From Chiloscyllium plagiosum (taxonomy: Eukaryota): 64,000 nt of DNA. The position numbers and the translations under genes are program-made. The stretch lies in the NCBI RefSeq assembly GCF_004010195.1, contig NC_057754.1, forward strand, positions 2,264,228-2,328,227, written 5' to 3'. Below are positions 2,325-60,202 of this stretch, piece by piece (positions within the stretch are counted from its first letter, which is position 1; every line of letters begins with the position of its first letter). The notes below the pieces were generated by a model. The model was not told the origin of the DNA. It was given only the letters and a program-made list of their open reading frames with translations, and did not search any database.

Positions 2325-2364
2325 GCAAACGTTTCGTCCCCTGTCTAAGTGACATCCTCAGTGC
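2325..2364 (-). ncRNA. Minimal hammerhead ribozyme motif in the PLE pLTR (family D)
   Basis: Minus strand GCA-CTGAGGA-t-GTCAC-ttagacag-GGGAC-GAAAC-GTT-TGC. It has the core boxes, stem II, palindromic ACGT stem III and a 3-bp stem I. Confidence 0.75.
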
Positions 2365-2997
2365 TTGGGACCCTCCTGTGAAGCGCTTCTGTGATCTTTC
2401 CTCCGGCATTTGTAGTGGTTTGAATCTGCCGCTTCCGGTTGTCAGTTCCAGCTGTCGGTTACCGTGGTCAGTATTTTGGGTCCAGATCGATGTGCTTATT
2501 GATTGAATCTGTGGATGAGTGCCATACCTCTAGGAATTCCCTGGCTGTTCTCTGTTTGGCTTGTCCTATAATAATAGTGTTGTCCCAGCCGAATTAATGT
2601 TGCTTGTCATCTGCATGTGTGGCTACTAAGGATAGCTGGTCGTGTCATTTCGTGGCTAGTTGGTGTTCATGGAGGCGGGTCGTTAGCTGTCTTCCTGTTT
2701 GTCCTGTGTAGTGTTTTGTGCAGTTCTTGCATGGCATTTTGTACACTACATTGGTTTTGCTCATGCTGGGTATCGGGTCCTTCGTTCTGGTGAGTTGTTG
2801 TCTGAGAGTGGCTGTTGGTTTGTGTGCTGTTATGAGTCCTAGTGGTCGCAGTAGTCTGGCTGTCAGTTCGGAAACGCTCTCGATGTATGGTAGTGTGGCT
2901 AGTCCTTTGGGTTATGGCATGTCCTCTTTTCATTGTCTTTCCCTTAGGCATCTGTTGATGAAATTGCGTGGGTATCTGTTTTTGGCGAATACATTGT

Positions 2998-3266
2998 NNN
3001 NNNNNNNNNNNNNNNNNNNNNNNNNNNNNNNNNNNNNNNNNNNNNNNNNNNNNNNNNNNNNNNNNNNNNNNNNNNNNNNNNNNNNNNNNNNNNNNNNNNN
3101 NNNNNNNNNNNNNNNNNNNNNNNNNNNNNNNNNNNNNNNNNNNNNNNNNNNNNNNNNNNNNNNNNNNNNNNNNNNNNNNNNNNNNNNNNNNNNNNNNNNN
3201 NNNNNNNNNNNNNNNNNNNNNNNNNNNNNNNNNNNNNNNNNNNNNNNNNNNNNNNNNNNNNNNNNN
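2998..3266. other. Assembly gap (N run) inside the PLE RT
   Basis: Run of Ns. Confidence 1.
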
Positions 3267-3440
3267 TCTTTGTTGATAGGTTCAACGTCCTGTTGTCTGT
3301 TCTGTATGTCCAGCAGGTTGGCTATTGTTTCTCTGGCTAGGGTTTTGTCGATAGAGTTGAACAGTGCCATTACATCGAATGAGACCATGGTTTCTTCCTT
3401 GTCTATGTGTATATTTCTGATGATGTCCAAGGATTCCTGT

Positions 3441-4022
3441 CTAGATCTCCTTGCATTTTAACATGGACTGTTTCAGTATCTGAGCAGTTGCAAATGGTGC
3501 TGAACATTGTGCAATGATTGGCAAACATCCCCACTTCTGATCTTATGAGGGAAGGTCATTGATGAAGCAGGTATAAATGGTTGGGCCTAAGACATTAACT
3601 CCTGCAGAGATGTCATGGAGCTGAAATGACTGACCTCCAACAACCATGACCATCTTCCTATCTGCCAGGTATAACTCCAACCAGCAGAGAGTTTGCCATC
3701 TGATACTTATTGATTCCAGTGTTGGTAGGGTTCCTTAGCGCTGCACTTGATTGAATGCAGACTTGATATCAAGGGCTATCACTCTCACCTTCCCTCTGGA
3801 ATTTGGCTGTTTTGTCCATGTTTGAACCAAGGCTGTAATGAGGTCAGGAACTGAGTGGAACCCAAACTTGGCGTCAAGGAGCAGGTGTTGCTTAATAGCA
3901 TTATTGATGGCACCTTCCATTATTTTACTGATGATCGAGAGGAGACTGATGGAAAGGTAATTGGCCAGGTTGGATTTATCCTGCTTTTTATGAACAGAAC
4001 ATACCTCGCCAATTTTCCACAG
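3441..4022 (-). mobile_element. Continuation of the CR1/L2-group LINE (RT region)
   Basis: ORF 3735-3920: LLDAKFGF..PDLITALVQTW..VRVIALDIKSAFNQV (RT motif). Confidence 0.85.
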
Positions 4023-4357
4023 TGTTATAGGATATAATTAGCCTAATTAACCATTACTAGTAAAGTTCTTGTTGAGTGTTATGCGTTCACCCAGTCCTCC
4101 TTTTTGTTTCCTGACTTAATTGAGACTGATAGGCAGTAACAATGACACCGTTTCCCCAATCACCTCCACACACCGTGCCTTCCGCCGCCCATTACCACTA
4201 CCACTCACACACACCCTGACAGCTGCTGAACATACATCAGTTAAAAACCACCCTAGTTGATTAGCCATTGGTGCTGCAGAGATGATTTAAAGTTATTTAT
4301 GTCTCCTGTGATTTTCATTTCATCAGATTGACTTGGAACTCAGAAGACTGTCTGATA

Positions 4358-4990
4358 ATCATAGAGTCATGCAACACAGAAACAGACCCTTCAGTCTTAA
4401 CTTGCCATTGCCGACCAAGTTTCCCAAACTAAGCAAGGCCCATTTGTCTGCACTTGGCCCATATCCTTCTAAACCTTTCCTGTTCATGCATCTGACCATA
4501 TGTCTGTTAAATGTTGTAATTGTACCTGCATCTACCACTTCCTGTGGAAGTCCATTTCCACATACGCATAACCCTCTGTGTTAAAACGTTGCCCGTCAGG
4601 TCCCTTTTAAATCTTTCTTCTCTCAACTTAAAAATATGCCCCCTCGTTTTGAAATCCCGACTCTAGGGAAAAGACCTTTGCTATTAACCTTATGATTATA
4701 TAAATCTCTATAAGATCACTCCTCAACCTCCTACACTCCAATGAAAAAAGTCCCAGCCTATGCAGCCTCTCCTTCTAACCCGAGCCCTCCAGTACTGGCA
4801 ACATCCTAGTAAATATTTTCTGAACTCTCTTCTGAACTCAATTTAATAATACACTCCCTACAGCAGGGCCACAACTGCACACAATATTCCTGAAGTGGCC
4901 TCACCAACATCTTGTACAACCTCAGCATGATGTCTCAACTCCCATACTCAATGGTCTGAATAATGAAGGCAAGTATGCTAAATGCTATTA
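4358..4990 (-). mobile_element. CR1 (HER1-like) LINE 3' fragment
   Basis: Tail CATAGAGTCAT..AAACAGACCCTTC and body similar to the CR1 copies at 14767 and 45229. Confidence 0.85.
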
Positions 4991-5039
4991 CAACCCAACT
5001 GTTCATACATATATCTGAGATCTCTCTACATAATTGCTT

Positions 5040-7338: not shown

Positions 7339-7499
7339 AGAGCCACCGTGCCACCCCAGTGTTAATTGCTATTTGTAGTTTGGAGGGGAACTCATAGATG
7401 GGAGTGTTCCTACCCATTATTTCATTTGACATGTCACTTTAACAATACTGCTACCTATACAACAATGGATCTATCAATGTTATGGCAAAGAAAGATGCC

Positions 7500-8164: not shown

Positions 8165-8470
8165 TTCATCCTCGGACAAGCCAAACAGAGACACATACGA
8201 GAATTCCTAGATTCCAATCGGATGTCTATCAATAAACAAATTGAGTTGGACTCCATTTACCACCCCTGAAAAAAAAACAGGAAATGATATCACCATAGGA
8301 CAACATCATCACAGGAAATGACATCACTAACCAGAAGAAACCCAAACATTTAAATAGAAAGCAAGAACCATCAGCAGTGCTTCACCTGGAGGCTCACTGA
8401 AGATGTTACCTTGTATGGTGACAAAATGTCTGAAAATGAACCTTTCAGCTCAAATCTTCTCAAAATTCGC
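8165..8470 (+). mobile_element. PLE 3' remnant (related to family D) with a degenerate hammerhead
   Basis: Translates ILGQAKQRHIREFL..SINKQIELDSIY. It contains TCA-CTGAAGA-t-GTTACC-ttgtat-GGTGAC-aaaatgtc-TGA at ~8394-8433. Confidence 0.8.
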
Positions 8471-8756
8471 TTACACTGCAGCCAATTTGCACACAGCCAG
8501 GAGAGCCAGCAACGGTAATTTCCATTTGAGAAGTTAGTTGTGAGGGACCTTCTTGAACTGCTACAGTCTGTGTGATGTTATAGTTATTAGAGAGGGGAGT
8601 TTCAGAATGTCAAGTCAGTGACAGTGAAGAAACAGCAATTTAGCTCCAGGTTGGGATGGTGTATGACTTGGAGAGAAATTTGTAGGTGGTCACGATGCCA
8701 AGTATCTGCTGACCCTGTCCTGGAGGTGGCAGAGGTTACGGGTTTGGCAGTTGCTA

Positions 8757-8887
8757 GGAGAAAGTGAGGACTGCAGATGCTGGAAATTGGAGTGAAAAAA
8801 TGTGGCACTGGAAAAGCACAGCCGGTTAGGCAGCCTCCAAGGAGCAGGAGAGTCGATGTTTCGAGCATTAGCTCTTCATCAGGAATG
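8757..8887 (-). mobile_element. PLE pLTR fragment (family A) with hammerhead; 14-bp degenerate TSD
   Basis: Minus strand CATTC-CTGATGA-a-GAGC-taat-GCTC-GAAAC-ATC, ending CTCACTTTCTCC. Flanks are GTTTGGCAGTTGCT (8742) and GTTTGGAAGTTCCT (8887). Confidence 0.85.
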
Positions 8888-8936
8888 TTTGGAAGTTCCT
8901 GTTGAATGAGCCTAGGTGAGTCACTGCAATGCATCT

Positions 8937-13140: not shown

Positions 13141-13367
13141 AAAACCCAAAGAACTGCAGTTGCTGTAAATTAGAGACAAAAATAGAAATTGCTGGAAAAA
13201 CTCAGCAGGTCTGGCAGCATTGTGGAGAGAAATCGGAATTAACGTTTTGGGTTGAGTGACCCTTCCTCATTGAGAAAGAGTCACTCAACCCGAACCGTTA
13301 ACTCTGATTTCTATCCACAGATGTTGTCAGACCTGCTGAGCTTTTCCAGTAATTTCTATTTTTGTCG
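13141..13367. mobile_element. Inverted pair of PLE pLTR fragments (family C), 13-bp TSD
   Basis: Arms are reverse complements about 13270. Each has a degenerate TGARRAAGRGTCACTCAACCCRAAMCGTTAA hammerhead. Flanks are AAGAAAATGATTA (13128) and AAGGAAATGATTA (13368). Confidence 0.85.
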
Positions 13368-15541
13368 AAGGAAATGATTAGCTCAGCTGAAGTGTCAGCA
13401 GTCTGGCCCAAAATGGAAAGTGCTGACAGCTCCTCAGCTTAAGGGTTTCAGTTTGTGAGAACTTTCAGATTGAAGAGAGTTTGGTTGGAGATCTGCAATG
13501 GTTATTCGAAGTTGAAAGATCTCAGTTGTTTGATTCAAAGAAAATGATTTGTCAGCGCACAGGACCAAGATTAAAATGAAGCTGCTAAGTCAATCTACAG
13601 ATTTGATGTGAAGGGAGAATTTCTGTCAATTTTGATTAACTGTAAAATGAAACCATTGGGGATTGGATGGGATTTTGTTTTGCTGGATGCTTGAAACTTT
13701 ATAATCTGTGTGAACTGTGGATATCTTGGTTTGTTTTATTCTTCCTTTTGCATAATAAACTTTTGCTTTATTGTTAAAGCCAAATCTGCAGCCTAGTGTG
13801 CTTATGTTTCAGTGAAAGACCACCACACTAAATTAATAAACCAAAATGTGAGCGATCAAGCCAGATTTCCTCCTGGTTTCTGACTCGTCGAATAGCAACA
13901 ATAGCTGGGATCATAACATTGTTACAAATGGCTCCAACTTGCCAACAAATCTCATTCTTGATTTCTTTACCACCCTTTCATGGTCGACATTAAGGAATAA
14001 CAATATGGTAACAGATCCGTTGTTATTTCTTCTTTCAACCCAGACAGACTCCATTTGAGCCCTATCGTTGATATAAAAACCTTCCTTTTTACCTCTTTAA
14101 TTGTGCCCTTAAGCTAAGGAACCATTCCACTTCCTTTTATTGTATCTCGTGACAGCCAGCTGAAGTCAAGCTTTCAGTAAGACTTTAACACTTGATCTCT
14201 CTGTTGAATCTCTCAACTCTCTGACATCGTTTTTAATGGTTCGTAGATTTGCATAAAACCCTGCAATGCTGGACACATTCGTATGCCTCAGTAACCTTTA
14301 CACAGCTTTCAGTTTATATTCTTTCCTTCAAAGGTTTTCCCACATTTATCCAAAACTTGTTATTTTTACCCATTGCTATATTCCTTCACTATGCATTATG
14401 GTTTATTTAATCTATAAATATATCTGTCAAGCACCATCTTAAACACTAAGTGTATCAGATTTATTACATTTCTGGTTGTGAAATCCTGCTTTGTGCAATG
14501 TTGGCTCTCATATTTTCCAATATTGCAACAGTCACAATAATTTGACTTTAAGGCACTTTCAGATGTGCACAAGTCATGCAAGTCATTGCATAGATCCAAG
14601 ATTTATTTTCTGTATATGGCAGAGATGTACCCAAAGTTTGGAGATCCTTCTAAGCACTACCAGTAGCTTGGATTAATGCAACGATGTGGCTCTGTATGAT
14701 GGTGGTGGACAGGTCAGAGTGATGGAGAGCCACTAGAAGTCAAACCTGTGACTGTCTCGCTTCAGGTTAGAGTCACAGAGATGTACAGCATGGAAACAGA
14801 CCTTACAGTCCAACCCGTCCAAGCCGACCAGATATCCCAACCCAATCTAGTCCTACTTGCTTGGACCTGGCCCATATCCCGTTAAACCCTTCCTATTCAG
14901 ATACCCATCCAGATGCTTTTTAAATGTTGCGATTGTATTAAACTCCACCACTTCCTCTGGCAGCCATTCCACAAACATACCAGCTTCTGCATGAAAAAGT
15001 TGCCCTTAGGTCTCTTTTATATCTTTCCCCTCTCACCCTAAATCTATGCCCACTAGTTCTGGACTCCAGGGAAAATACTTTGTCTATTTACTCTATCCAT
15101 GCCCCTCATGATTTTATAAACCTCTATAAAGTCAACCCTCAGCCTCTGACACTCTGGGGAAAACAGTCCCAGCCTATTCAACATCTGTCTATAGCTCAAA
15201 TCCTCCAACCCTGGCAACATCCTTGTAAATCTTTTCTGAACCCTTTCAAGTTTCACAACATCTTTCCAAAAGGAAGGAGACCAAAATTGCATGCAACGTT
15301 ACAAAAGTGGCCTAACCAATGTCCTGTACAGTTGCAACATGACCTCCCAACTCCTGTACTGAATACTCTGACCAATAAAGGAAAGCATACCAAACGCCTT
15401 CTTCACTATCCTATCTACATGCGACTCCGCTTTCAAGGAGCTATGAACCTGCACTCCAAGGTCTCTTTGTTCAGCAACACTCTCTGGGACCTTACCATTA
15501 AGTGTATATGTCCTGCTAAACTTTGGTTCCCCTTTGGTTAT

Positions 15542-15854
15542 GGGCGGCACGGTGGCACAGTGGTTAGCACTGCTGCCTCGCAGCGCCAGAGACCCGGGTT
15601 CAATTCCCGACTCAGGCGACTGACTGTGTGGAGTTTGCACGTTCTCCCCGTGTCTGCGTGGGTTTCCTCCAGGTGCTCCGGTTTCCTCCCACAGTCCAAA
15701 GATGTGCAGGTTAGGTGAATTGGCCATACTAAATTGCCCGTAGTGTTAGGTAAGGGGTAAATGTAGGGGTATAGGTGGGTTTCGCTTCGGCAGGTCGGTG
15801 TGGACTTGTTGGGCCGAAGGGCCTGTTTCCACACTGTAATCTAATCTAATCTAA
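15542..15854 (+). mobile_element. HE1-type V-SINE (young, near-identical to 62630-62947)
   Basis: GGGCGGCACGGTGGCACAGTGGTTAGC ... ACACTG(TAATC)n. Confidence 0.95.
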
Positions 15855-16857
15855 ATCAAACTCCATCTGCCACTTCTCAGCCCATTGGTCCATTTGTTAA
15901 AGATCCCGTTGAAATCTGAGGTAACCTTCTTTGCTGTCCACTGCACCTCCAATTTTGGTGTCATCTGCAAAATTACTGCCTGTACCTTTTATGCTCGCAT
16001 CCAAATCATTTATATAAATGATGAAAGGTAATGGACTCAGCACCGATTCTTGTGGCACTCCACTGGTCACAGGCCTCTAGTCTGAAAAACAACCCTCCAC
16101 CACCACCCTCTGTCTTCTACCTTTGAGCCAATTCTGTATCCAAATTACTAGTTCTCCATGTATTCCATGAGATATAACCTTGCTAACCAGTCTCCCATGG
16201 GGAACTTTTGTTTAATGCCTTACTGAAGTCCATATGGATCTGTCTACCACTCTGCCCTCATCAATCCTCTTTGTTACTTCTTCAAAAAACTCAATCAAGT
16301 TTGTGAGACATGATTTCCCATGCACAAAGCCATGCTGACTATCCCTAATCAGTCCTTGCCTTTCCAAATACATGTACATCCTGTCCCTCAGGATTCTCTC
16401 CAACAACTTGTCCACCACCGACGTCAGGCTCACTGGTCTATAGTTCCCTGGCTTGTCCTTACCACCCTTCTTAAACAGTGGCACCACGTTGGCCAACCTC
16501 CAGTCTTCCAGCATCTTACCTGTGACTATCGATGATACAAATATCTTTGCAAGGAGCCCAGCAATCACTTCCCTAGCTTCCCATAGAGTTCTAGAATACA
16601 CCTGATTAGGTCCTGGGGATTTATCCACATTTATGCGTTTCAAGTCATCCAGCACTTCCTCCTCTGTAATATGGACATTTTTCAAGGTGTCACCATTTAT
16701 TTCCCTCCATTCTATATCTCCCATGTCTTTCTCCATAGTAAACACTCACAAAATACTCATTTAGTATCCCCCTATCTCCTGCTGCTCCACACAAAGGCCG
16801 CCTTGCTAATCTTATGAGGGGCCCTATTCTCTCCCTAGTTACCCTTTTGTCCTTAAT

Positions 16858-17697: not shown

Positions 17698-18232
17698 ATA
17701 GAATCCCTCCAGTGTGGAAACAGGCCCTTTGGTCCAACAAGTCCACACCAACCCTCAAAGAGTAACCCACACAGACCCATTTCCCTACCCTATTGCTTTA
17801 CATTTGCCTAATCTACACATCCCTGAACATTATGGGCAATTTAGCTTGGCCAATTCACATCTTTGGATTGTGGCAGTAAAGTGGGGGGTTGAGAGTGTGG
17901 TGCTGGAAAAGCACAGCAGGTCAGGCAGTATCCGAGGAGCAGGAGAGTCAACGTTTCGGGCGTAAACCCTTCATCAGGAATGCTGCCCAATGAAGGCCTC
18001 CTCGGATGCTACCTGACCTGCTGTGCTTTTCCAGCACCACACTCTCAACTCTGATCTCCAGCAGCTAGTATTTTCTCCATTGTGGGAGGAAACTGGAGCA
18101 CCCGGAGGAAACCCACGCAGACACAGGAAGAACGTGCAAGCTCCACACAGACAGTCACCCGAGGCTGGAATCAAGCCCTGGTCCCTGGTGCTGTGAGGCA
18201 GCAGTGCTAACCACTGAGCCCCCTTGCTTCCC
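17698..18232 (-). mobile_element. HE1-type V-SINE interrupted by a PLE pair
   Basis: Tail at 17698. The V-domain resumes at 18079 and the head ends at ~18230. Confidence 0.9.
17874..18078. mobile_element. Inverted pair of PLE pLTR fragments (family A), 7-bp TSD ATTGTGG
   Basis: The minus arm has CTGATGA-a-GGGT-ttac-GCCC-GAAAC-GTT and the plus arm ends TTTTCTCC. ATTGTGG occurs at 17867 and 18079. Confidence 0.85.
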
Positions 18233-19720: not shown

Positions 19721-21474
19721 TGTGCTGCAATTACTTGGGCTAATAATTTTTCATCAGGTTCTTGAGCTGAGTCCACTCTAACTTTAAAGTCAGGTCTCTT
19801 GCAACTAACCCAAAGAGAGGAGATTTCTACTCCATCAGTCAAGAGTTGAATTTCAGCCAGCTTTCAAAACTGAAAGGATAGAATTTTAATCAAGAACAAA
19901 GCATAATCCCCCGCAGTCTATATTCATTCTCACTTTCTCCGCTGACCCAGACAGCGCTCTCCTTGTTTACTGTGTCACTGCTAATCTTTCCTTCATCTCC
20001 AGTATGTTCCACATGCCACAGATTTCTTCAGGAATTCAATCTATTTCATAATCCAAAGGCCATATTTTATTTACCTTCTGCATCAAAACATAATCCTTAA
20101 TGATGCACATTTAATTGTTAATGTAAACAATTTCAGCAACAGATTTTTAAGTTTAGCTGCAGCTGAGTTGCTGCTCAGTGGAATCAGCCCAGACTGGTCT
20201 TGCATATTTGATTGTATTTTCCCTCCTTCATGCATGGCCAGAATTGGAGAGTCTCCCGCACTAAGTGCAAGTGAATAAAACATTTTTACAGCATGTTAGG
20301 TAATGTTATGGGTTAAATAAGATTGCAGCTTTGAATTAAACTTCTTAGCAACAGTAATTGGAGTTTCAATTATTGATGAATATAATATTACACTTAAAAT
20401 ACACACGGAAAATAACAGGGAAAGATATCAGGTGGATACCATGTTGACTTTCCTCCTCAATGTAGAAGGGTTTTCATGCTGTAGACCTCTATGACCCTGT
20501 GACATCAGTATTGTTTCAAAGCAGAATAAGAGACCTTCTCCCCAGGTTTTTTTTTGGTGGATTTTTAACCTTTGACTGGCATCACTAAAGCAGGTTCAAA
20601 GCAGCTGGAAAAGCATGAACTGAGATACAGGTGCCATCAGTTCACTGACCTTCTGTTCAAAATGAGCTCATCAGGGAGGGATGCATTGTTGACAGTGATT
20701 CTACTCAACTTTGCTTTGTAGCCCATTATATCGTGTGATTGTCACAGTTGACACAAATTTGTGTTGTTGCTCTGGGTCTCTCATCTGGTATTGTCTCTTG
20801 GTGTCCCTGATGGCTTTGCGAATGTTGAGGCTGCAGTGTCAGTGGGCGAATTACCTTAAGAGATCTCATTGCTGAGCAAACTCTTGCCAGTTTAACAGAC
20901 ATGAGAGGAACCCACTGAACAGATATTTGGAATGGGAAACTATGCTGTTTTTTCTATCCAGGACACAGCAGCACCGAGGTCACCTCTCATCCTTCAGTGG
21001 GGATGGACTAACACAACTGATCCAGTTCAAGATCAAAGTTGGGTTCTTACTTATCTCTCTGTCTCAGTGTGCAAGCCTACACACAACAGGGAGCAACAGT
21101 ACTTTACAAAACATGCTGTTTTCTTAAAAACAACATTTTGTGTTTGTACATTGAAACAATTTTTTTTCCTTAAAAGGAGCAAACGTACCCTTGATAAAGT
21201 TGGAAAGGTAAGTGAAAGCGTTATGAAGCTAGATGCTATCAAAACTGTGCCTTCTGGCAATGTGGCTATCAGCAGGAATCACAAATGTACAATCAATGTG
21301 ACAGTCACAGGAGACAGCAAATCACTAATGCAGAAGGCTTCTCTACTGCACAAGGCTTGCTGGTTAGATCAGTAAAGAAAATCTGAATTTTCAGAATCAC
21401 AGAAGGTAAGGACATCCCAACATGTTTGAGTGTGAATCCTAAACTAGCCAGTTGATTTAGCCTATCCCCATTGA

Positions 21475-21670
21475 GTTACAAATCGCACGACACCAGGCTA
21501 TAGTCCATCAGGTTCATTTGGAGGCACTAGCTTTCGAAGGTGTGACAACCACCTGATGAAGAAGCAGCACTTTGAAAGCTAATGCCTCCTCATAAACCTA
21601 TTGGACAATAACCTGGTGTTGTGTGATTTTTAGCTTTGTCCACCTCAGTACAACACCAGCTCCTCCAAAT
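21475..21670. mobile_element. Inverted pair of PLE pLTR fragments (family B), perfect 14-bp TSD
   Basis: CCTATCCCCATTGA at 21461-21474 and 21671-21684. The plus arm has CAC-CTGATGA-agaagcagcacttt-GAAAG-CTA. Confidence 0.88.
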
Positions 21671-28759: not shown

Positions 28760-28912
28760 TGATGTGGAGATGCTGGTGTTGGACTGAGGTGGACAAAGTC
28801 AGAAATCACACAATATCAGGTTATAGTCTCTGACAGGTTTATTTGAAATCACAAGCATTCGGAGCACTGCTCCTTCATCACTATAACTTGGTGTCGTGAG
28901 ACTTCTGACTTT
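28760..28912. mobile_element. PLE family B: minus arm with hammerhead plus a short inverted arm, perfect 12-bp TSD
   Basis: ATCAGATATTTA at 28748 and 28913. The minus arm has TGATGA-a-GGAGC-agt-GCTCC-GAAT-GCTTGTG. Confidence 0.85.
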
Positions 28913-33339: not shown

Positions 33340-33545
33340 AAAGCCAATTTGTGCACAATGAGGTCCGACAACAGGAATATGATGATAACCTAATTAGTAA
33401 ACTGCTTTAATGATGTTGGTTGAGTGCTGATGGGAACTTCCTTTCTCTTCTTTGGAACAGTGCGACGGGATGCTCTACATCCACCTCACGAGGGAGTTAT
33501 GGCTTCAGTTAACATCTCATCTGACAGTGGAGCACTCCCTCATTA
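33340..33545 (-). mobile_element. DeuSINE (SacSINE1-like) 3' and central part
   Basis: GCCAATTTGTGCACA..TGATGTTGGTTGAG..ACATCCACCTCA..AACATCTCATCTGACAGTGGAGCACTCCCTCA. Confidence 0.75.
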
Positions 33546-34850: not shown

Positions 34851-35380
34851 CAATAATGATGTCCAAGATTGTATTGCTCTGGAGGGTAAACTTCTGTTCT
34901 GGATTATAAATGCTACATATTGGGCCACTGCAACAGAGAATTGTACATTATTGACCATATCCAAAACTGGACACAGCTTTGGAAAATAACTGTATTAAAA
35001 TTGCACCTACAGATTGTTTCAGCTGGTTTGCCCTCATCAGTCCACTGGTGCACAGGATATATTGTTCATTTTCAATTCTCCCCGAGCATGCTCTGAACTT
35101 CATTCTAAGGCCGTGTTCTGTTTCAGAGCTAGGAAAATTCTTATCAATCCAGTTTGATATTTTAGAGCAAGCTTCACATTCAGAAATCCAAGTATAAACA
35201 GCTACCTATCTAACTGGCTTCACATGTAACAGCACAAGCCCATTCTTGTGTGACTGTTGAGAATAGTCATACTGTCATAAACAAAGGTTTGTCCCACCTA
35301 TTCATGTAGCCCTTTGTTTTATCAGGATATGGCAGTGTTCTACAGACCAAAGATTGTCTTCATTCTGTGTCTGGTACTCA

Positions 35381-36857
35381 GATTAACATCAGCAGAGATA
35401 CAGTCAGTAACACTGGGCACAGGGGAGAGAGGGGTTACTGAGTGACAGTGTGAGGGAGCTGGATTAACATCAGTAGAGGTACAGTCAGTAACTCAGGGCG
35501 CTGGAGGGGGACGGGGTTACTGAGTGACTGTGAGGGAGCTGGATTAACATCAGTAGCGATACAGTCAGTAACACAGGGCGCTGGAGGGGGACAGGGGTTA
35601 CAGAGGGACAGTGTGAGGGAGCTGGATTAACATCAGTAGAGATGCAGTCAGTAACACAGGGCGCTGGAGGGGGACGGGGTTACTGAGTGACTGTGAGGGA
35701 GCTGGATTAACATCAGTACAGATAGTCAGTAACACAAGGTGCTGGGGGGATAGGGGTTACTGAGTGACAGTGTGAGGAAATTGGATTAACATCAGCAGAG
35801 GTACAGTCTGTAAAGACACTGGGGGAGAGGGGTTACTGAGTGACAGTGTGAGGGAGCTGGATTAACATCAGCACAGATACAGTCAGTAACACAGGGTGCT
35901 GGGGGAGAGGAGTTACTGAGTGACAGCATGAGGGAGCTGGATTAACATCAGCAGAGATACGTCAGTAACACTGGGCACTGGGAGTGGAGAGGGGTTACTG
36001 AGTGACAGCGTGAGGGAGCTGGATTAACATCAGCACAGACACAGTCAGTAACACAGGGTGCTGAGGGGAGGGTGCGTTACTGAGTGACAGCGTGAGAGAG
36101 CTGGATTAACATCAGTAGCGATGCAGTCAGCAACACAGGGAGCTGGGGCAGAGAGGTTACTGAATTACAGTGTGAGGGAGCTGGATTAACATCAGCAGAG
36201 ATACAGTCATTAACACAGTGCTTTTGGGGGGGCGGGGGAGAGGGGTTGCTGAGTGACAGTGTGAGGGAGTTGGATTAACATCAGCACAGATACAGTCAGT
36301 AACACAGGGAGCTGGGGAAGAGGGGATACTGAGTGACAGTTTGAGGGAGCTGGATTAACATCAGCACAGATACAGTCAGTAACACAGTGTGCTGGGGTGG
36401 GGAAGAGGGGTTACTGAGTGACAGTGTGTGGATACTGAATAAACATCAGTAGAGATACAGTCATTAATATGGGAGGGGAGGGGGTTACTGAGTGACAGTG
36501 TGAGGGGGCTGGATTTACATCAGTACGGATACAGTCAGTAACACAGGGGAGGGGAGAGGGGTTACCAAGTGACAGTGTGAGGGAGCTGGATCAACATCAG
36601 TAGAGATACAGTCAGTAAACAGGACACTGGCCAGAGAGGGGTTACTGAGTGACAGTGTGAGAGAGCTGGATTAACATCAATAGAGATACAGTCAGTAACA
36701 CAGGGTGCTGGAGAGGGACAGGGGCTACTGAGTGACAGTGTGAGGGAGCTGGATTAATATAAGCAGAGGTACAGTCAGTAACACAGGGCACTGGGAGGGT
36801 AGAAGGGTTACTGTGTGATAGTGTGAGGGAGTTGAATTAACATCAGTACAGATACAA
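35381..36857. repeat. ~80-bp minisatellite, ~19 units, with an internal inverted repeat
   Basis: GGATTAACATCAGYAGAGATACAGTCAGTAACAC-[variable G-rich]-GGGTTACTGAGTGACAGTGTGAGGGAGCT repeated. Confidence 0.96.
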
Positions 36858-37294
36858 TGATTCTTCCTAAAAACAACTGATACAGTTGTGACTCAATATG
36901 TCAGCACATTAATGCAGACTATATTCTGGCAAAAATGGAACTCTTGTGAATGAGCATTTGGTTTGGGACGTACTGGCTGAGGGAAGAATGTTTGCCAGGA
37001 TGCAGAGAAATGTTTCCTTCAACAATCTCTCCATCAGCAAATGTTGCTTCAGTTGACCTCTCGGTTGAAAAGCATGGCCTCTGACAATGCAGCCCTCCCT
37101 CGTAAACTGCATTCTAGTATCAGCCGAATTCACCAAGAGACACACGAGTGAAGGACACAGGGTCATCAAGCAGCCAAACTCTGTTACCCCAGGGGAATTA
37201 TAGCAAAGAGAAAATGCCCTTTTGAGTACAGTGGTTGTTCTGTCAGTAATGATACAGAAATACAAGAAGGATTTGCATTCTCCAGCATCATTTG

Positions 37295-37885
37295 AGACCT
37301 TAGAAAATTCCAAGTGCCTACCAGCTGATTAACTACTTTTATGAAGTGTTGTCACAGATCTATGGTAGGAAATGCAGCACCCAATTTGCACACAGCAAGC
37401 TCCCACAAACACCAAATTGACACTGACTTGATCATTTGTTTTCAGTGATGTCGACTGAGGTATAAATATTGGTCCCAGGATGCTGGCAAGAAGCCCTCCC
37501 CCAACTCCCTAATTTCTTCCAGTAGTGACTGCACCAACTGCACCCCCATCTGACCAAAAGGGTAGATGGGGTCTCAGTTTAGTGTCTCATCTGAAAGACA
37601 GACACCTCCAACAATCCAGTGCTCCCTCCGTGCTGCTGCTCTGCCAGTGTAGCACTCCCTCAGTCCTGTTTTTCTGACACTGCAATCCTCTTTCAGCGTT
37701 GCCTCTTTGACAGTGTGGAGCTCCCTCAGTCCTGTCCCTGAGACACTGCAATGCTCCCTCAGAACTGCATTCCTGATGCTGCAATGTACCCTTAGTACTG
37801 ACCCTCTGACAGTGCAGAACTCGCTCAGTACTGTCCCTCTGGTATTGCCCAAGGTACCAGACTGGACCGTGTGCTCAAATCCTTA
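37295..37885 (-). mobile_element. DeuSINE with a short degenerate 33-bp array (~37605-37845)
   Basis: CCAATTTGCACACAGCAAGCTCCCACAAAC..GTCTCATCTGAAAGACAGACACCTCC, then ~7 units, then GTGCTCAAATCC. Confidence 0.8.
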
Positions 37886-41790: not shown

Positions 41791-42822
41791 AATCAAAACT
41801 CATGGCATGACTTTAACATCAGTAAGAGTGCTTGAGAGAAGACATCAGACTAGAAGGAACATATAAAGGGACAGGTCTTACAAACTGCATTAGAGAGCTG
41901 TTTTCAGTAACCTAGATTTAACCGATGTCAGTAAAAGACTATTACAATATATCAGGAGTAATGGAGCCTTACCCAAGCATAAGGAGCCAACAGTCTCATG
42001 GGTGTATGCGTAGACACCCACAATGCAGACATACTAAGACTTAACGCTCGTAGTTACAGCCTAAAGAATATGGCACTAACCACTTGAAAACTGCCACTGG
42101 AGTTATGTGACCTCACCTCCTCTGTTTTATTGATGCTGTTGAGGTTCCATATTGGCTAAAGTCCTGGGAATAACTTCCCTGCTTCTCTTTAAAAGAGTAC
42201 ACCTACTTCCACCTGGAGAGCAGACAGGCCCTCGGCTTAATGAAAGAGCAAACAAAATCTTGAAAGAGCAAGATTTAAGAGAGTTCAGCTTCCATAGAAT
42301 CTATAGATAAGTTTATTGATGATCCTTCAGATTAGTGGAAAACTGTGACTCTGGACTTTGTAATCAGAATTCATAAGCGACAAACTTGGAACTACCAATG
42401 AGTCATTGTCAGAGTTATTACAATCCAAAGGAAATTTCACTTAAGAGAAAGCTATTCCGAATGTGCTGTCAGCAGAAGCCAATGAGAATGACAGGATATC
42501 CCGAGAGGAGAAGGTCAACTTTATCACAGGAAAACAACAGAATCTATCCACTGTACAAGGTATAAACACTTAAAAAGCACACATAACAAACCAACACAAA
42601 GCATAGGCCAAACTGCAGATACTAGGAGTCAGGTCCAATTCGGAAGCTGAGTTAAATGACATTAATCAAATGCAACATTAGCCTGTCCCACCCAACATGG
42701 TCTTAAGGACTTCAGATCCCCTCTGCAGCTGAATTACTGATGTGTAGAAAACTGAAGACTCGACTCCATATCCTACCAAAAGGTTGACTCCATAGTTCAG
42801 TCATGGGGATGTAAGATTTGTA

Positions 42823-42915
42823 CGAAGTCAAAAATCACACAACACCAGGTTAGACTCCAACAGGTTTATTTGAAACTGCAAGCTTTTGGAGCCCCCATTC
42901 CTTCCTCAGGCAGCT
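42823..42915 (-). mobile_element. PLE family B fragment with a degenerate hammerhead
   Basis: AAAAATCACACAACACCAGGTTA..CAAGCTTTTGGAGC..TCCTTCCTCAGG. Possible TSD AGAYTTGTA (42814, 42916). Confidence 0.7.
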
Positions 42916-45228: not shown

Positions 45229-45820
45229 TCATAGAGTCATAGAGTTGTGCAGCATGGAAACAGACCCTTCTGTCCAACCTGGTGCAGCATGGAAACAGAC
45301 CCTTCTGTCCAACCTGTCCATGCCGATCAGATATCCCAACCCAATCAAGTCCCATTTGCCAGCACCTGGCCCATATCCCTCCAAACCCTTCCTATTCATA
45401 TACCAATCCAGAGGCCTTTTAAGTGTTGCAATTGTACCAGCCTCCACCACATCCTCTGGCAGCTCATTCCATACATGTACCACCCTCTGCATGGAAAAGT
45501 TGCTCATTAGGTCCCTTTTATATCTTTCATCTCTCACCCTAAACCTATGCCCTCTAGTTTTGGACTCCCTCACCCCAGGGAAAAGACCTTGTCTATTTAC
45601 CCTATCCATGCCTCTCATGATTTTATAAATCTCTATAAGGTCACCCCTCAGCCTCCGACACGCCAGGGAAAACAGCCCCAGCCTATTCAACCTCTCCCTA
45701 TGGCTCAAATCCTCCTAACCTGGCAAAATCCTTGTAAATCTTTTCTGAACCCTTTCAAGTTTCACAACATCCTTGCAATTGCAATAGGTAAGAGACCAGA
45801 ATTGCATGTAATATCTATCT
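45229..45820 (-). mobile_element. Young CR1 3' fragment with a 35-bp tandem duplication in the tail (45247-45316)
   Basis: ORF 45229-45708 LNRLGLFSL..RGDLIEIYK..WNELPE, and GTGCAGCATGGAAACAGACCCTTCTGTCCAACCTG twice. Confidence 0.93.
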
Positions 45821-50661: not shown

Positions 50662-51319
50662 GTAGAATCCCTACCGAGTGGAAATAGGTCCTTCGACCCA
50701 ACAAGTCCACACTGACCCTCTGAAGAGTATCCCACCCAAACCCACTCCCCTACATTTACCCTGACTCATGCACCTTACCTACACATCCCTGGACACTACG
50801 AGGCAATTTAGCACGGCCAATTCACCCTAACCTGCATATCCCTGAACACTATGGGGCAATTGAGCACAGCCAATCCACCTTAACCTGCACTACCCTGAAC
50901 ATTATGGGGCAATTGAGCATGGCAGATGCTGGAGATTAGAGTCGAGAGTGTGAGGCTGGAAAAGCACAGCAGGTCAGGCATCCAAGGAGCAGGAAAATCA
51001 ACGTTTCGGGCAAAAGCCCTTCATCAGCAAGGCTTGATGAAGAGCTTTTGCCTGAAACATTGATTTTCCTGCAATTTAGCATGGCCAAATTCACCTAACC
51101 TGCGCATCCCTGACCACTGTGGGCAATTTAGCACAGCCAATTCACCTAACCTGCACACCTTTAGACTGCGGGAGAAAACTGGAGCACCCAGAGGAAATCC
51201 ACGCAGACACAGGGAGAATATATAAACTCCACCCAGACAGTTCCCCGAGGCTGGAATCAAACCCCGGTCCCTGATGCTGTGAGGCAGCAGTGCTAGCCAA
51301 TAAGCCACCATGCCACCCC
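50662..51319 (-). mobile_element. V-SINE with an internal ~50-bp tandem expansion and a PLE insertion
   Basis: About five copies of ACCTGCAYATCCCTGRACACTAYGGGGCAATTKAGCAYRGCCAATTCACCTA between tail and V-domain. Confidence 0.88.
50922..51071. mobile_element. Inverted pair of PLE pLTR fragments (family A), both with hammerheads
   Basis: Minus arm CTGATGA-a-GGGC-tttt-GCCC-GAAAC-GTT. Plus arm TTGATGA-a-GAGC-tttt-GCCT-GAAAC-ATT. Flanks GCAATTKAGCATGGC. Confidence 0.85.
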
Positions 51320-52897: not shown

Positions 52898-54591
52898 TTG
52901 CATCAGTGCTTACAGCGGAGAAGGACATAGAAAATATAGAATGTACGGAAACAGATGGTGACATCTTGAAAAATGTCTATATTACAGAGGAAGAAGTGCT
53001 GGATGTCTTGAAACGCATAAAATGGATAAATCCCCAGGACCTGATCAAGTGTACCTGAGAACTCTGTGGGAAGCTAGGGAAGTGATTTCTGGGCATCTTG
53101 CTGAGATATTTGTACCATCGATAGTCACGGGTGAGGTGCCAGAAGACTGGAGGTTGGCTAATATGGTCCACTATTTACGAAAGGTAGTAAGGGCATGCCA
53201 GAGAACTATAGACCAGTGAGCCTGACCTCGGTGGTGGGCAAGTTGTTGGAGGGAATCCTGAGGGACAGGATGTACATGTATTTAGAAAGGCAAGCACTGA
53301 TTAGGGATAGTCAACATGGCTTTGTGCGTGGGAAATCATGTCTCACAAACTTGATTGAGTTTTTTTTCAAGAAGTAACAAAGAGGATTGATGAGGGTAGA
53401 GTGGGAGACATGATCTGTATGGACTTCAGTAAGGCATTCGACAAGGTTCCCCATGGGAGACTAGTGAGCAAGGTTAGATCTCATGGAATACCGGGAGAAC
53501 TAGCCATTCGGATACAGAACTGGCTCAAAGGTAGAAGACAGAGGGTGGTGGTGAAGGGTTGTTTTCAGACTGGAGGCCTGTGACCAGTAGAGTGTCGCAA
53601 GGATCGGTGCTGGGTCCACTACTTTTCGTCATTTATATAAATGATTTGGATGTGAACATTGGAGGTATATTTAGTAAGGTTGCAGCTAATGCCAAAATTG
53701 GAGATGCAGTGGACAGCGAAGAAGGTTACCTCAGATTACAACGGGATCTTGACCAGATGGGTCAATGGTCTGAGGAATGGCAGATGAAGTTTGATTTAGG
53801 TAAATGCGAGATGCTGCATTTTGGGAAAGACAAATCAGGGCAGGACTTATATACTTAATGGTAAGTTCCTGGGGAGTGTTGCTGAACAAAGAGACCTTGG
53901 AGTGCAAGTTCATAGGTCTTTGAAAATGGAGTCGCAGGTAGATAGGATAGTGACAAAGGTGTTTAGTATGCTTTCCTTTATTGGTCAGAGTATTGAGTAC
54001 AGGAATTGGAAGGTCATGTTGCAGCTGTACAAGACATTGGTTAGGCCACTTTTGGAATATTGTGTGCATTTCTGGTCACCTTCCTATCGGAAGGATGTTG
54101 TGAAACTTGAAAGGATTCAGAAAAAATGTACAAGGATGTTGCCAGGGTTGGAGGATTTGAGCTTTAAGGAGAGGCTGAATAGGCTGGGGCTGTTTTCCCT
54201 GGAGCGTTGGAGGCTTAGGGGTGACCTTTCAGAGGTTTATATAATCATGAGGGGCATGGATAGGGTAAATAGACAAGATCTTTTCCCTGGGGTGGGGGAG
54301 TCCGGAACTAGAGGGCATAGGTTTAGGGTGAGAGGGGAAAGATATAAAAGGGGCCTAAGGGGCAACGTTTTCATGCAGGAGGTGATGTGTGTGTGTGGAA
54401 TGGGCTGCATGAGGACATGGAGGATGTTGGTATAATTGCAACATTTAAAAGTCATCTGGATGTGTGTTTGAATAAGAAGGGTTTGGAGGGCCGGGTGCTG
54501 GCAAGTGGGACTAGATTAGGTTGGGATATCTGGTCGGCATGGACGAGTTGGGCCAAAGTGTCTGTTTCTGTGCTGTACATTTCTATGACTC
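52898..54591 (+). pseudogene. CR1 (HER1-like) ORF2 RT, frameshifted, with 3' tail
   Basis: KSPGPDQVY, NYRPVSLTS, DFSKAFDKVPH, QGSVLGPLLFVIYINDL, LVRPLLEYCVHFWSP, and tail CTATGACTCT. Confidence 0.96.
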
Positions 54592-55630: not shown

Positions 55631-56405
55631 GAGTGGGGTGCTGGAAAAGCACAGCAGGTCAGGCAGCATCCAAGGATCAGGAGAATCGACGTTTTGGGCC
55701 AGAGCCCTTCATCAGGAATGAGGCTGGAAGCCTCAGGGGTGGAGAAGTAAATGGGAGAGGAGTGTCATTTATTGTATCCATTGCTCCCGATGTGGTCTCC
55801 TCTACATTGGGGAGACTGGACACCTTCTTGCAAAGAGCTTTAGAGAACATCTCCGGGACACTTGCACCAGTCAACCCCACCGCCCCGTGGTTGAACATTT
55901 CAACTCCCCCTCCCACTCTGCCAAGGACATGCAGTTCCTGAGCCTCCTCCATCACCACTCCCTCATCACCCGGCCCCTGGAGGAAGAACGCCTCATCTTC
56001 TGCCTCAGGACCCTTCAACCCCAGGGCATCAACGTGGACTTCACCAGTTTCCTCATTTCCTCTCCCCCCACCTTACCCCAATTCCAACCATCCAGCTTAG
56101 CACTGTCCTCATGACCTATCCCACCTGTCATTCTTCCTTCCCACCTATCCGCTCCACCCTCCTCTCCGACCTATCACCTTTACCCCCCCTCCATCCACCT
56201 ATTGCATTCTTAGCTACATTCTCCCCAGTCCCAACCCCCTCCCATTTATATCTCCACCCCCGAGGCTCCCATCCTCATTCCTGATGAAGGGCTCTGGCCC
56301 GAAACGTGGATTCTCCTGCTCCTAGGATGCTGCCTGACCTGCTGTGCTTTTCCAGCAACACACTCTTGACTCTGACCTCCAGCATCTGCAGACCTCACTT
56401 TCTCC
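55631..56405 (+). mobile_element. Neptune-like PLE (family A): inverted pLTR, GIY-YIG domain and pLTR, perfect 14-bp TSD
   Basis: ACCATTACCCTCAA at 55617 and 56406. The open frame 55764-56114 reads VIYCIHCSRCGLLYIGETG..FREH..HFNS..EERLIF..QPQGIN. 55631-55760 is the reverse complement of ~56238-56365. Confidence 0.93.
56276..56312 (+). ncRNA. Minimal hammerhead motif (family A)
   Basis: CATTC-CTGATGA-a-GGGC-tctg-GCCC-GAAAC-GTG-GATT. The triplet is GUG here versus GUC in the sister copy. Confidence 0.7.
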
Positions 56406-56659: not shown

Positions 56660-57290
56660 GGTGCACAGGTGAAAGGTCAGAGGGAAGAGGGGAAATGAGG
56701 AAACTGGTGAAATCCACGTTGATGACGTGGGGTTGGAGAGTCCTGAGACGGAAAATGAATCGTTCTTCCACCAGGCATCAGGTGGTTAGGGAGTGGCAAT
56801 GGGGGAGGCCCAGGACCTGCATGTCCTCAGCGGAATTGGAGGAGGAATTGAAGTGTTCGGCCATGGGGCAGTGGGGTTGATTGGTGCAGATGTCCCGGAG
56901 GTGTTCTCTGAAGCACTCTGCGAGAGGGCGGCCTGTTTCCCCAATGTAGAAGAGAGTGCAATGGGAGCAACGGATACAGTAAATGATGTGTGTGAAAGTG
57001 CAGGTGAAACTTTGATGGATGTGGAAGGTTCCTTTGGGGCCTTGGACGGAGGTGAAGGGGGAGGTTTTACAATTTCTGCGGTGACGGGGAATGTGCCAGG
57101 AGGGGAGGGTGGGTTGTTGGGGGGTGTGGACCTGACAAGGTAGTCATGGAAGGAATGGTCTTTACGGAAAGCAGATAGGGGTCAGGATGGAAATATATCT
57201 CTGGTGATGGGGTCCGATTGCAGGTGGTGGAAATGGCGGAGGATAATGTGCTGTATCTGGAGATTAGTGGGGTCAAAGGTGAAGACCAGA
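56660..57290 (-). mobile_element. Neptune-like PLE fragment (Cys linker and GIY-YIG)
   Basis: Minus translation RRNCKT..TSVQGPKGTFHIHQSFTCTFTHIIYCIRCSHCTLFYIGETGRPLAECFREHLRD. Confidence 0.9.
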
Positions 57291-57629: not shown

Positions 57630-58005
57630 TCTTACTTCAGTCAGAAGGCTGAGGGTTCATTTATCATTCAAGAAACTGGAATGCAAAGGCCCTGACAGAA
57701 TCTCCAGTGCAATGCTGAGGGAGTTGCTAATTTTTTTTGTTTACATGTTAACCACGATACATGCATGACATTCTATTGAGTATTTTGAAAATTGGGGATT
57801 TACCACAGACCTGGTCACTATTTATCCCATAACTAACCACATTAAAACAGATTATTTGGCTATTATCACAACGCTGTTTGTGTGAATTTTTGTGCAATTG
57901 ACTTCTGCATTTCCTACAATGCCGCAGTGACCACAGACAAAACATGTATAATTGGCTGTAAGGTACCTAGGGTTGACCAAGAACTGCAAATAGTGCTATA
58001 TAACT
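57630..58005 (+). mobile_element. Degenerate DeuSINE
   Basis: AGTCAGAAGG..CCAGTGCAATGCTGAGGGAG..AAAACAGATTATTTGG..CATTTCCTACAATG..GTGCTATATAA. Confidence 0.7.
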
Positions 58006-58631
58006 CCAAAATTAAAAACTCCAAACTCACACCGACACACGGACCCTCTCACACATACCCCATCACACTCACACACAATTAACCAAGCTTACACACACAC
58101 ACACACACACACTATCACATGCACTCACACCCAGATGCACATTCAATCTGTCGTTCCTACATGTGCACACATATAAGCTTATGGGTTGAATTTGTTTTTA
58201 CAGAATTCCATTTTATTTTGCTCAAAAACTGCATGAATCTATGTAAAACTCTGTAAAACTATACAGAGGGTTTATCAGTCTGACACAGCATTGGGATACA
58301 GACAGACTTCACACTTATTGTTTAAAAAACTGAGCTAGCTTGAGAATGTAATTTAAATGAAGTTCTGGGATTTACATATCATAGAACAGAAACCAGTATA
58401 TCCCATTATAAAAGATGAAAGTTTTAATCTAAGATTGCTTACTGTGTCAAATCTCCATGACACTGGCCTCGTTTGGCTGTACATTCTGTGAGCATGATCT
58501 TAACCTCCACAACCACCTGAAGGAGCAGCACTCTGAAAGCTAGTGCTTCCAAATAAATCTGTTGGCCTATAACCTGGTGTTGTGATTTTTAGCTCTGTCA
58601 ACCCCAGTCGAACACCAGCACCTCAAAGTCA
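58006..58631 (+). mobile_element. PLE family B long pLTR with (CA)n and a deleted hammerhead core; 9-bp TSD TATATAACT
   Basis: CAC-CTGA[-]AGGAGCAGCACTCT-GAAAG-CTA-GTG, with 3' end as in 21560-21670. TATATAACT occurs at 57997 and 58632. Confidence 0.75.
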
Positions 58632-58989
58632 TATATAACTTCAAGTATTTTTTGTTGGACCCGAGCAGACATCAATGCCTTCAGGAAATGAGGAGTTTGC
58701 AAATATAAACATCCTAGTGGCTTCCACTTTATTTAATGCTTTGATCCTTAGTAATAGTTTATGTATGGACAATAATTGACTTACTCTATTGTCATTGAAG
58801 TTTGAGCACTGACAAAATTCTGGATCTTGTTTTACTACAAGCATCACCTGAAATAACAGGAGAATTGAAGTAGCTAAACGGGACAGATGTCTGGAGATTC
58901 TCAATTTAAACATTTTCATATTATAATCAGAAAAAGGGAATCAGGACTGTGCCCAGATCCCAGGCCTGCCCACTAGAGGAAGATGTCAG

Positions 58990-59079
58990 GCACCCTCGGA
59001 TGCTGGTTGACCTGGTGTGCTTTTCCAGCACCAAACTCTTCGACTCTGATCTGCAGCATGTGCAGTCCTCACTTTCTCC
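58990..59079 (+). mobile_element. PLE family A 3' tail only, ~19-bp TSD
   Basis: Ends CAGTCCTCACTTTCTCC. CACYAGAGGAAGAKGTCAG occurs at 58971 and 59080. Confidence 0.8.
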
Positions 59080-59976
59080 CACCAGAGGAAGAGGTCAGTC
59101 TTTCGGGATTTTCAAGGCAATGTCTCTTAATTGGCACTGAAACAGTTTTATTGAATTCAAATTCTACGTTCTGCCTTTGCATGATTTAAACCCTGGTCCC
59201 TAGAACATCACCTGGGTCTCTAGATTAATAGTACAGTGATAATACCACAAGGTCATTATACAGTGTGGAGGCAAAGCATATATAAAGCATAGCATTTTGG
59301 CCCATAAAATCCAAGCACTTACCACATACTGTACACTTCTTATTTGCTATTCCCTATTCAAGTATGTGTCTCTGGACTTTGTAAAGTGATCAATGCACAT
59401 TAATGGAAATATGGATACTTTGTAGCACAAGAGATTTTCTTTGAGTTGGATTTTGTTGTAAAACAGGTTAACAATGCTCATTGTTACTTGCGCATATACT
59501 GGACAGCAACTTTATCAATTGAACACGTGCAGTGAAAATTTCAAAGTTTCTTGTCATCTGATTCACCATTCAAACCAAATGAACAGACAATAGATGCTGT
59601 ACTCAACTATAAGATACAGAATAAACACACCAGAGAAGATAGATCAGGGTTTCTTCTTTCCTATGTATTTAACTGCTTAAACCTGTAGTAAGTCTTAATT
59701 AGTCCTCAGATGGTGCATCCACTTAAGGTTGACTACTGAATACCTGATTCATCTCCATTGTATTAACCATGCATCTGTGTAGTTCACCATTGATGGTGGG
59801 GGATGAGGCTGAACAGAGATAGTATGTTGACTTTAAGGCAGACTCATGCAGAGTTGTTGGAATAAGGTTCATCTACGCTGACTATACACAGCAAAGCTGG
59901 TCTAGACTCTAGAGACAATGATCAATGTTTACACATATGATCTGCAGTCTGACAAGATTGACATTGATAATGTTAC

Positions 59977-60202
59977 CTCTCCGTCCCCACCCCAGTCTGA
60001 CCTATCACCCTCACTTTGACCTCTTTCCACCTATCACATTTCCGACGCCCCTCTCCCAAGTCCCTCCTCCCTACCTTTTATCTTAGCCTGCTGGACAAAC
60101 TTTCCCCATTCCTGAAGAAGGGCTTATGCCCGAAACGTCGATTCTCCTGTTCCCTGGATGCTGCCTGACCTGCTGCGCTTTTCCAGCAACACATTTCCAG
60201 CT
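59977..60202 (+). mobile_element. PLE family A pLTR
   Basis: Similar to 56150-56365. Confidence 0.85.
60107..60143 (+). ncRNA. Best-preserved minimal hammerhead motif (family A)
   Basis: CATTC-CTGAAGA-a-GGGC-ttat-GCCC-GAAAC-GTC-GATT, with intact core and a GUC triplet. Confidence 0.78.

Follow-up and report, generated by a model that had tools for sequence, protein, structure and literature searches.

Minimal type I hammerhead ribozymes (HHRs) at the ends of Penelope-like elements (PLEs) have been in print since 2014, when they were described in the pseudo-long terminal repeats (pLTRs) of metazoan PLEs (Cervera and De la Pena 2014, PMC4209133). Such minimal motifs cut poorly, and as dimers only (PMC4209133; PMC6765202); they also cut when the protein of the element is present, and insertion in vitro can do without them (PMC11167929). 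PLE pLTRs contain TATA and initiator-like motifs (PMC3846280, PMC2377424), a CX2-5CxxC linker marks Neptune and Nematis (PMC8557442), and animal retrozymes, with one chondrichthyan included, have been proposed to derive from PLE pLTRs (bioRxiv 10.64898/2026.07.22.740005). A whale shark paper names Penelope among its elements (PMC8455134). Here we analyse a 64,000-nucleotide stretch of the Chiloscyllium plagiosum genome (NC_057754.1, positions 2,264,228 to 2,328,227; hereafter the window), in which an initial annotation had reported hammerhead-like sites of four families, A to D. These sites are very probably the 3' ends (pLTR plus an optional 35-nt tail) of truncated PLE insertions carrying a minimal type I hammerhead, predicted to be able to cut solely in dimeric form or alongside an element protein, and likely selected in active master elements while scattered copies decay neutrally. 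The kind itself is already known; what the shark adds is scale and resolution. A literature search that took in neither Repbase nor Dfam, nor most subscription journals, nor the supplementary files of PMC4209133, found no description of these families, their numbers or the 5' pile-up reported below.

The initial annotation had counted about 15 copies of CTGANGA, stem II and GAAA in four sequence contexts. All 15 coordinates indeed belong to members of families A to D, and all are ends of PLEs, but the whole hammerhead core is kept at only seven: 8882, 17977 and 51027 on the minus strand and 56281 and 60112 on the plus strand (A), 21553 on the plus strand (B) and 2361 on the minus strand (D). 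The descriptor search that had been proposed (CTGANGA, one extra letter, a stem II that begins with G, then GAAA, any two letters and T) returned exactly these seven sites from the window, against a mean of 0.05 and a maximum of 1 in 100 approximately dinucleotide-preserving shuffles; an Rfam scan of the window gave no hammerhead match at E<=10. The other eight sites are broken by core mutation, deletion or truncation (Table 1), and the sole site that fits the young consensus throughout is 60112, with a GUC triplet.

The consensus of every family contains the CUGANGA ... GAAA ... UH core, one extra nucleotide that separates 9 from 10.1 (A in A, B and C, U in D), a G10.1-C11.1 pair closing stem II and, from 15.2 to 16.2, a palindrome without loop 3 (ACGU in A, C and D, AGCU in B). 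The earlier reading as minimal type I hammerheads with loopless palindromes therefore holds, the palindromes being consensus states. Stem I differs in sequence between families (AUUC/GAUU or GAAU in A, AGUU/AACU in C, CAC/GUG in B, and GCA/UGC, UCA/UGA or CCA/UGG in D) and has a length of 3 bp in B and D but of 4 bp in C and a single A subfamily (AUUC/GAAU).

To judge from the aligned copies, the stem covariation is real between subfamilies and reflects a few master-element events inherited by many copies. Among 21 D copies, chosen by a pattern that fixed two stem II pairs and left stem I free, 93.7% of cells are paired, against 29-40% with slid partners. The outer stem I pair (3-42) is U-A in 10, G-C in 9, C-G in 2 and unpaired in none, which bears out the covariation of GCA/TGC with TCA/TGA seen at the outset and adds a third state, CCA/TGG; stem II pair 3 is C-G, U.G or U-A, and pair 4 is mismatched in the young D1 group. 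These changes are about three subfamily events, not 21. In A, pair 10.2-11.2 is genome-wide G-C in 71,919 copies, A.C in 1,297, G.U in 1,040 and A-U in 430, against 18.8 A-U expected if the two positions were independent; since most of the listed A-U copies carry one haplotype, this double change is one master event. The loop variants listed for family A stem II were correct, as was the double change GAGC/GCTC, but GGGT/GCCC, also presented as compensatory, is a one-sided C>T that gives G.U.

That the host elements are PLEs, as first proposed, is seen in their linkage to reverse transcriptase (RT) and GIY-YIG sequences, their tails, their inverted partners and their target-site duplications (TSDs). 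Family A lies downstream of RT motifs, a CHRRNCKTC linker (CX4CxxC) and a GIY-YIG domain, and its tail passes into the start of the open reading frame (ORF) 162 nt past C3, with 721 exact junction matches; at L284 (L numbers label loci in the same assembly) the frame stays open for more than 350 codons and then meets a gap. Family B lies downstream of a GIY-YIG end with a CHVYHCKTC linker, followed by a CA-rich untranslated region (UTR) of about 750 nt. Family D has no linker; at L156 two hammerheads, spaced 2,503 nt, enclose an RT frame (Pfam RVT_1, E 2e-11) that GIY-YIG motifs follow, the in-frame ATG consists of A9, the extra U and G10.1, and the stop of an upstream ORF lies inside loop II. 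No link of this kind between hammerhead end and ORF start was seen in B or C, nor was any ORF of C. By the linker, which Nematis shares, A and B would be Neptune-type and D Poseidon-type. This agrees with the names first given to A and to D: A has the CX4CxxC linker, and D has none and places its start codon within the ribozyme, as in Anolis PAc. The count of four families fares less well: B is likewise Neptune-type, and C is caught by the A profile and, having its tail in common with A, is an older relative of A and not an independent family.

The 3' ends are bimodal in A (60/158 at +90 to +99, 71/158 at +120 to +139), B (30/53 at +80 to +94, 15/53 at +120 to +129) and D (20/40 at +75 to +84, 14/40 at +110 to +119), in counts that include targeted loci. 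The two ends, about 35 nt apart, correspond to the optional 30-40-bp PLE tail, and such paired ends have been explained by two internal RT start sites (PMC11167929). An inverted partner lies directly upstream of 102/229 A copies and 41/78 B copies, nine of the ten window units tested stand between TSD-like repeats 9-16 bp long that differ at one position at most, although the two 9-bp ones may be chance, and many small non-coding units are present, as had been noted. In the youngest A subfamily the tail contains AATAAA (L290:1687-1700), and 29 reads of RNA run X19 carry poly(A) from L290 position 1700, the short genomic 3' end (+91). All D subfamilies keep GCTTCA...GGAGG just 5' of stem I (window 2364-2395, minus strand), a possible 5-bp hairpin, which in the counted D1 and D2 copies is preceded by a TATA-like box at a distance of 30 nt; the 5' ends of 4 of 11 D1 copies lie at -78 to -90.

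Where do the copies begin? A sample picked blind to content (142 pieces, 1.408 Mb without N, comprising the window and 30 pieces on its contig and, for the rest, pieces taken at round coordinates of large contigs) yielded 252 A-type matches, C-like relatives included, 84 B and 42 D in profile searches. Of the A matches, 246 aligned to long reference copies, 231 were usable (clear of edges and N, identity >=0.8), and removal of duplicates left 229; 78 of the 84 B matches were usable. Counted from C3, 37 of the 229 A 5' ends lie at -51 or beyond, 9 at -50 to -31, 4 at -30 to -11, 64 at -10 to -1, 45 at 0 to 9, 21 at 10 to 25 and 41 at 32 to 60, this last bin being enlarged by older relatives with a ribozyme region that fails to align with the references. 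Among A copies that reach -1, 56% end within 10 nt, against 0-15% in the upstream bins, and the pile-up is the same in young A copies without an inverted partner (25/45). In B, 26 of the 78 ends fall at -10 to -1 and none at -30 to -11. Copy starts at the cut site, predicted if the RNA is cleaved in vivo, are not in excess: 8/229 in A at +26 to +31 (cut site +28) and 0/78 in B. The flanks of short copies are mutually unrelated and show none of the pyrimidine bias seen in the true UTR (0.47 vs 0.72), so the pile-up is not an alignment artefact, and RNA reads break off at the same 5' edge.

The A peak at -4/-3 falls on YYANWYY, about 31 nt after TTTATC, and B has TATAAA at -38; we take these to be an initiator-like and a TATA motif, respectively. 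One A copy, L271, starts at -3 and extends 70 nt into the ORF start, and so derives from a 5' pLTR, and chimeras at L281, L283, L289 and L290 join ORF-start sequence to a piece beginning at -4 to +3. About half of the A and B copies begin no more than 10 nt from this 5' edge of the ribozyme, and their clustering here, away from the cut site, suggests that the template RNA of A and B starts there. A splice acceptor in the A tail or the upstream pyrimidine tracts was considered and rejected, as its positions shift from one subfamily to the next and no peak of the 5'-end histogram coincides with them.

We can sketch how such copies might arise. An endonuclease would nick the target, and RT would start at one of two internal sites 35 nt apart, giving the two 3' ends. 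In the Neptune-type A and B, RT may often copy merely 90-130 nt before it reaches the RNA's 5' end just upstream of the ribozyme, and this short copying could yield tiny units or fold-back pairs, and tandems where the template jumps. The ribozyme would probably serve to process tandem transcripts that the active element makes, and not host RNA. More tentatively, and at somewhat less than even odds in our estimation, the Neptune-type hammerhead may form the first 30 or so nt of the mRNA. RT coming from the tail of the 5' pLTR would then run off the capped end, the tiny units would be strong-stop-like cDNAs marking the transcription start, and template jumps would build partial tandems and retrozymes like the 224-nt array described below. 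If the pile-up is the transcription start, it would explain the origin of partial tandems and retrozymes, an open question in PLE biology. The copies, by their number, also give a fossil record of the points where reverse transcription starts and stops.

The tiny units might instead be self-propagating, SINE-like (short interspersed element) mini-PLEs: an initiator before the ribozyme and downstream elements would make units of 100-130 nt transcribable, and PLE protein would copy them in trans. The fixed A edge with its peak on YYANWYY would suit this, as would the very high copy number. Penelope of D. virilis, moreover, has an internal promoter (PMC2377424). Short and long copies, however, are of the same subfamily sequences, their lengths form a continuum up to ORF fragments, and copies that run into the ORF start, L271 and its like, begin at the same edge, which points to the 5' end of an autonomous RNA. 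We therefore regard self-propagation as unlikely, though likelier than the alternatives below.

Could the motif be kept in master elements for something other than cutting, as a promoter, an RT pause site or a protein-binding fold, with cleavage vestigial? The lack of excess copy starts at the cut site is compatible with this, the pile-up could be RT stalling at the folded motif, Anolis PAc ribozyme mutants insert normally in vitro (PMC11167929), and 8/9 Xenopus dimers remained uncleaved (bioRxiv 10.64898/2026.07.22.740005). Yet families whose stems have no sequence in common still keep every catalytic letter together with the extra nucleotide, G10.1-C11.1, the palindrome and a complementary stem I, and the PAc ribozyme does cut with protein present (PMC11167929). 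A purely non-catalytic role consequently strikes us as improbable.

A role for the host is less probable by far. Dispersed copies acting as host-maintained cassettes that cut host transcripts would find some encouragement in about 40 fully intact motifs per 1.41 Mb and in RNA reads of the unit on both strands. The dispersed copies, however, decay neutrally. In A, the pair-breaking A.C (1,297) is as common as the tolerated G.U (1,040), and G12, which lies in a CpG, is A in 21 of 116 motif-spanning copies, which is no different from five further CpG positions (p 0.68); among B copies, 20/43 have lost G12 and 12/44 retain the whole core, matching independent decay. Because G12 decays at the CpG rate and pair-breaking changes go unpurged, selection would have acted on master elements and not on a host cassette, and it is the copy numbers that allow selection on masters to be told apart from neutral decay. 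Solo copies have no dimer partner, head-to-head partners are on opposite strands, and no read ends at the cut site, in a library ill suited to show such ends. The dense dispersal of ribozyme cassettes proposed initially thus stands as regards the many tiny units, but most of the listed copies are dead and their covariation is no sign of cassette upkeep. Chance matches to a short consensus within repeats, at which the lack of hammerhead hits in Rfam and single-strand folding z-scores mostly near 0 might hint, can be dismissed given the shuffle control (7 vs 0.05), the same position in four families and the slid-partner controls (29-40% vs 94%).

Several observations nonetheless weigh against our interpretation of master-selected hammerheads in PLE ends. 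In most A subfamilies stem I is merely 2 bp, a U.U and 1 bp, a weakness already suspected from the window. Monomers do not fold into the hammerhead at minimum free energy (MFE), although stem II forms in 6/8, and holding the 224-nt tandem to stems I and II in each of its units comes at 2.1 kcal/mol, these folding results being silent on activity. The GIY-YIG Pfam matches lie below the curated cut-off (E 6e-4 to 0.04), the clades were named by the linker, and the 17 regions fetched contained no intact full-length ORF, their long frames being N-filled or broken; the longest "open frames" in that search were assembly N. At non-CpG positions the A core decays less than the tail in unmatched comparison (2.2% vs 6.0%); base-matched, with subfamily-variable columns taken out, core/tail rates are 3.9/4.5% for G, 2.2/2.7% for T, 4.3/4.6% for C and 1.2/2.9% for A and do not differ (p 0.07-1.0), the one weak trend being that for A (p 0.07). 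For family D there is no 5' pile-up at the ribozyme edge (16 usable copies in one set), so a run-off step would not be general, and in one poly(A) single-cell RNA run the unit occurs on both strands with no pile-up of molecule starts or ends.

Exact patterns matched the 3.56-Gb assembly 71,919 times for A, 17,116 for B, 298 for C and 12,475 for D, at least 101,808 together, while reversed controls gave 0. The descriptor found 125 core-intact motifs in the 1.408-Mb sample, 40 of them fully intact, which scale to ~300,000 and ~100,000 in a rough extrapolation; by this estimate the genome likely holds a few hundred thousand such hammerhead sequences. For comparison, about 4,000 minimal motifs have been published for coelacanth and 9,000 for Xenopus (PMC4209133), and up to 120,000 canonical hammerheads for axolotl (PMC7229834). 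At least 100,000 exact motifs in 3.6 Gb are far over the published PLE counts, which are in the thousands, and per base over the canonical motifs of axolotl.

Among the A derivatives is a 224-nt unit made of hammerhead, tail and ORF start, rejoined 20 nt before the hammerhead. It stands in tandem, with an identical junction, at two separate loci, L287 (C1) and L290:1399-1963, with one intact hammerhead per unit, and belongs to the A subfamily with the perfect 4-bp stem I; among the first 100 matches listed, the 224-nt spacing recurs at five places. About 2% of RNA run X19 held 0 reads across the junction. With two or more hammerhead units per array, this is a candidate non-LTR retrozyme from A, and it fits the proposed PLE-pLTR origin of animal retrozymes; no window copy has tandem hammerhead units, all being solo or inverted. 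Tandem copies with both cores intact are also seen in C, 177 nt apart at L272 (C4:54039860-54040066), and in B, 355 nt apart at L280.

Table 1. PLE-derived features of the window and the state of their hammerheads.
Coordinates	Strand	Feature	Evidence
2281..3445	-	5'-truncated Poseidon-type PLE (D1): RT fragment, GIY-YIG region, pLTR, short tail; N run inside	tblastn vs L102/L118 proteins, 83-94% identity; nhmmer; sequence
2325..2364	-	D1 minimal hammerhead (site 2361): intact core, U17, stem I GCA/TGC, a 6-bp stem II containing one A.G mismatch, triplet GUU	
8168..8451	+	Older D2 end: remnant of the GIY-YIG C terminus, TATA-like box rich in A/T, hammerhead 8394-8435 (site 8397) dead (G12>A)	
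8753..8887	-	Short A unit, start 5 nt before C3, long tail, 11-bp TSD	
within 8753..8887	-	Hammerhead 8882-8855, GAGC/GCTC subfamily of A, palindrome lost (ACAT)	
13141..13367	.	C head-to-head pair, both arms (sites 13269 and 13272) cut inside CUGANGA, GAAA changed, 13-bp TSD, tail common with A	
17877..18078	.	A unit (17984 to about 17885, minus, site 17977, core intact, U17) and inverted partner without ribozyme; 10-bp TSD	
21475..21668	.	B unit (plus, start 8 nt before C3 at 21553, long tail; stem II weak, stem I absent) and inverted truncated partner; 14-16-bp TSD	
28760..28912	-	B unit cut at C3 (site 28880), A15.1>T; 12-bp TSD	
42818..42915	-	B unit, start 1 nt before C3, G12>A (site 42912)	
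50924..51070	.	A head-to-head pair (51027 minus, intact, U17; 51033 plus, broken: site 51035, C3>T, stem II disrupted); 15-bp TSD; within SINE	
55631..56405	.	One canonical PLE insertion between perfect 14-bp TSDs	
parts of 55631..56405		Inverted pLTR (hammerhead 55715, G12>A), truncated GIY-YIG 55761-56111, 3' UTR, pLTR (hammerhead 56281, G17), long tail	
56679..57289	-	Another Neptune-type linker/GIY-YIG fragment, its hammerhead end missing	
58325..58630	+	B end and about 190 nt of upstream UTR; 3-nt core deletion at 58515	
59975..60202	+	A end and 137 nt of upstream UTR, short tail; hammerhead 60108-60143 consensus-perfect, GUC, predicted cut after 60139	

The window holds further repeats. 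Extra tail-only A and B fragments lie at 58994-59040, 61591-61659, 21470-21539 and 17998-18050, and the A unit at 17877..18078 sits within a tRNA-derived SINE. Fragments of LINE type (long interspersed element) and SINEs occupy 14783-16745 (with Pfam RVT_1 at 16215-16745), 30459-30837, 45282-45784 and 53023-54395, and several PLE units are inserted within them. Minisatellite arrays with periods of about 24, 33 and 80 nt lie at 1-1700, at 33500-34750 and 37590-37850, and at 35370-36900. A head-to-head pair of tRNA-derived SINEs at 62468-62798 forms a 165-bp hairpin, and is the origin of Rfam microRNA matches at 62577-62689, which we rejected as spurious.

How, then, do these families compare with the described systems? 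With the min-HHRs of metazoan PLE pLTRs (PMC4209133) they share the type I core, the extra nucleotide, G10.1-C11.1 and the loopless palindrome, and also the presence of several consensus families per genome, mostly as single motifs from truncated PLEs; the copies counted there are far fewer, helix II is 4-6 bp here, and sharks are not mentioned in the passages available from that paper. Family D resembles the Anolis Poseidon element PAc (Frangieh et al. 2024, PMC11167929), in which the ORF's ATG likewise stands at the start of stem II, the cut site follows the ATG by 26 nt (28 nt in D), and two 3' ends match two RT start sites. By contrast, A has its ATG beyond the tail, and in B the long CA-rich UTR separates ORF and ribozyme; a 5' pile-up of the A/B type is absent from the passages available from that paper. 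The 224-nt tandem is like animal non-LTR retrozymes (PMC7229834; bioRxiv 10.64898/2026.07.22.740005) in being a non-coding, pLTR-derived multimer with one type I hammerhead per unit, from which the solo or inverted window copies differ. Finally, the units agree with those of endonuclease-bearing (EN+) PLEs, both Neptune and Penelope/Poseidon (Craig et al. 2021, PMC8557442; Arkhipova et al. 2013, PMC3846280), in their 5' truncation, partial tandems, inverted copy, 30-40-bp tail and TSDs, in the TATA and initiator-like motifs of the pLTR and, for the Neptune-type, in the CX2-5CxxC linker. Where they depart from those elements is in how truncation is distributed, since here its points are clustered: of the A and B copies reaching -1, more than half end within 10 nt.

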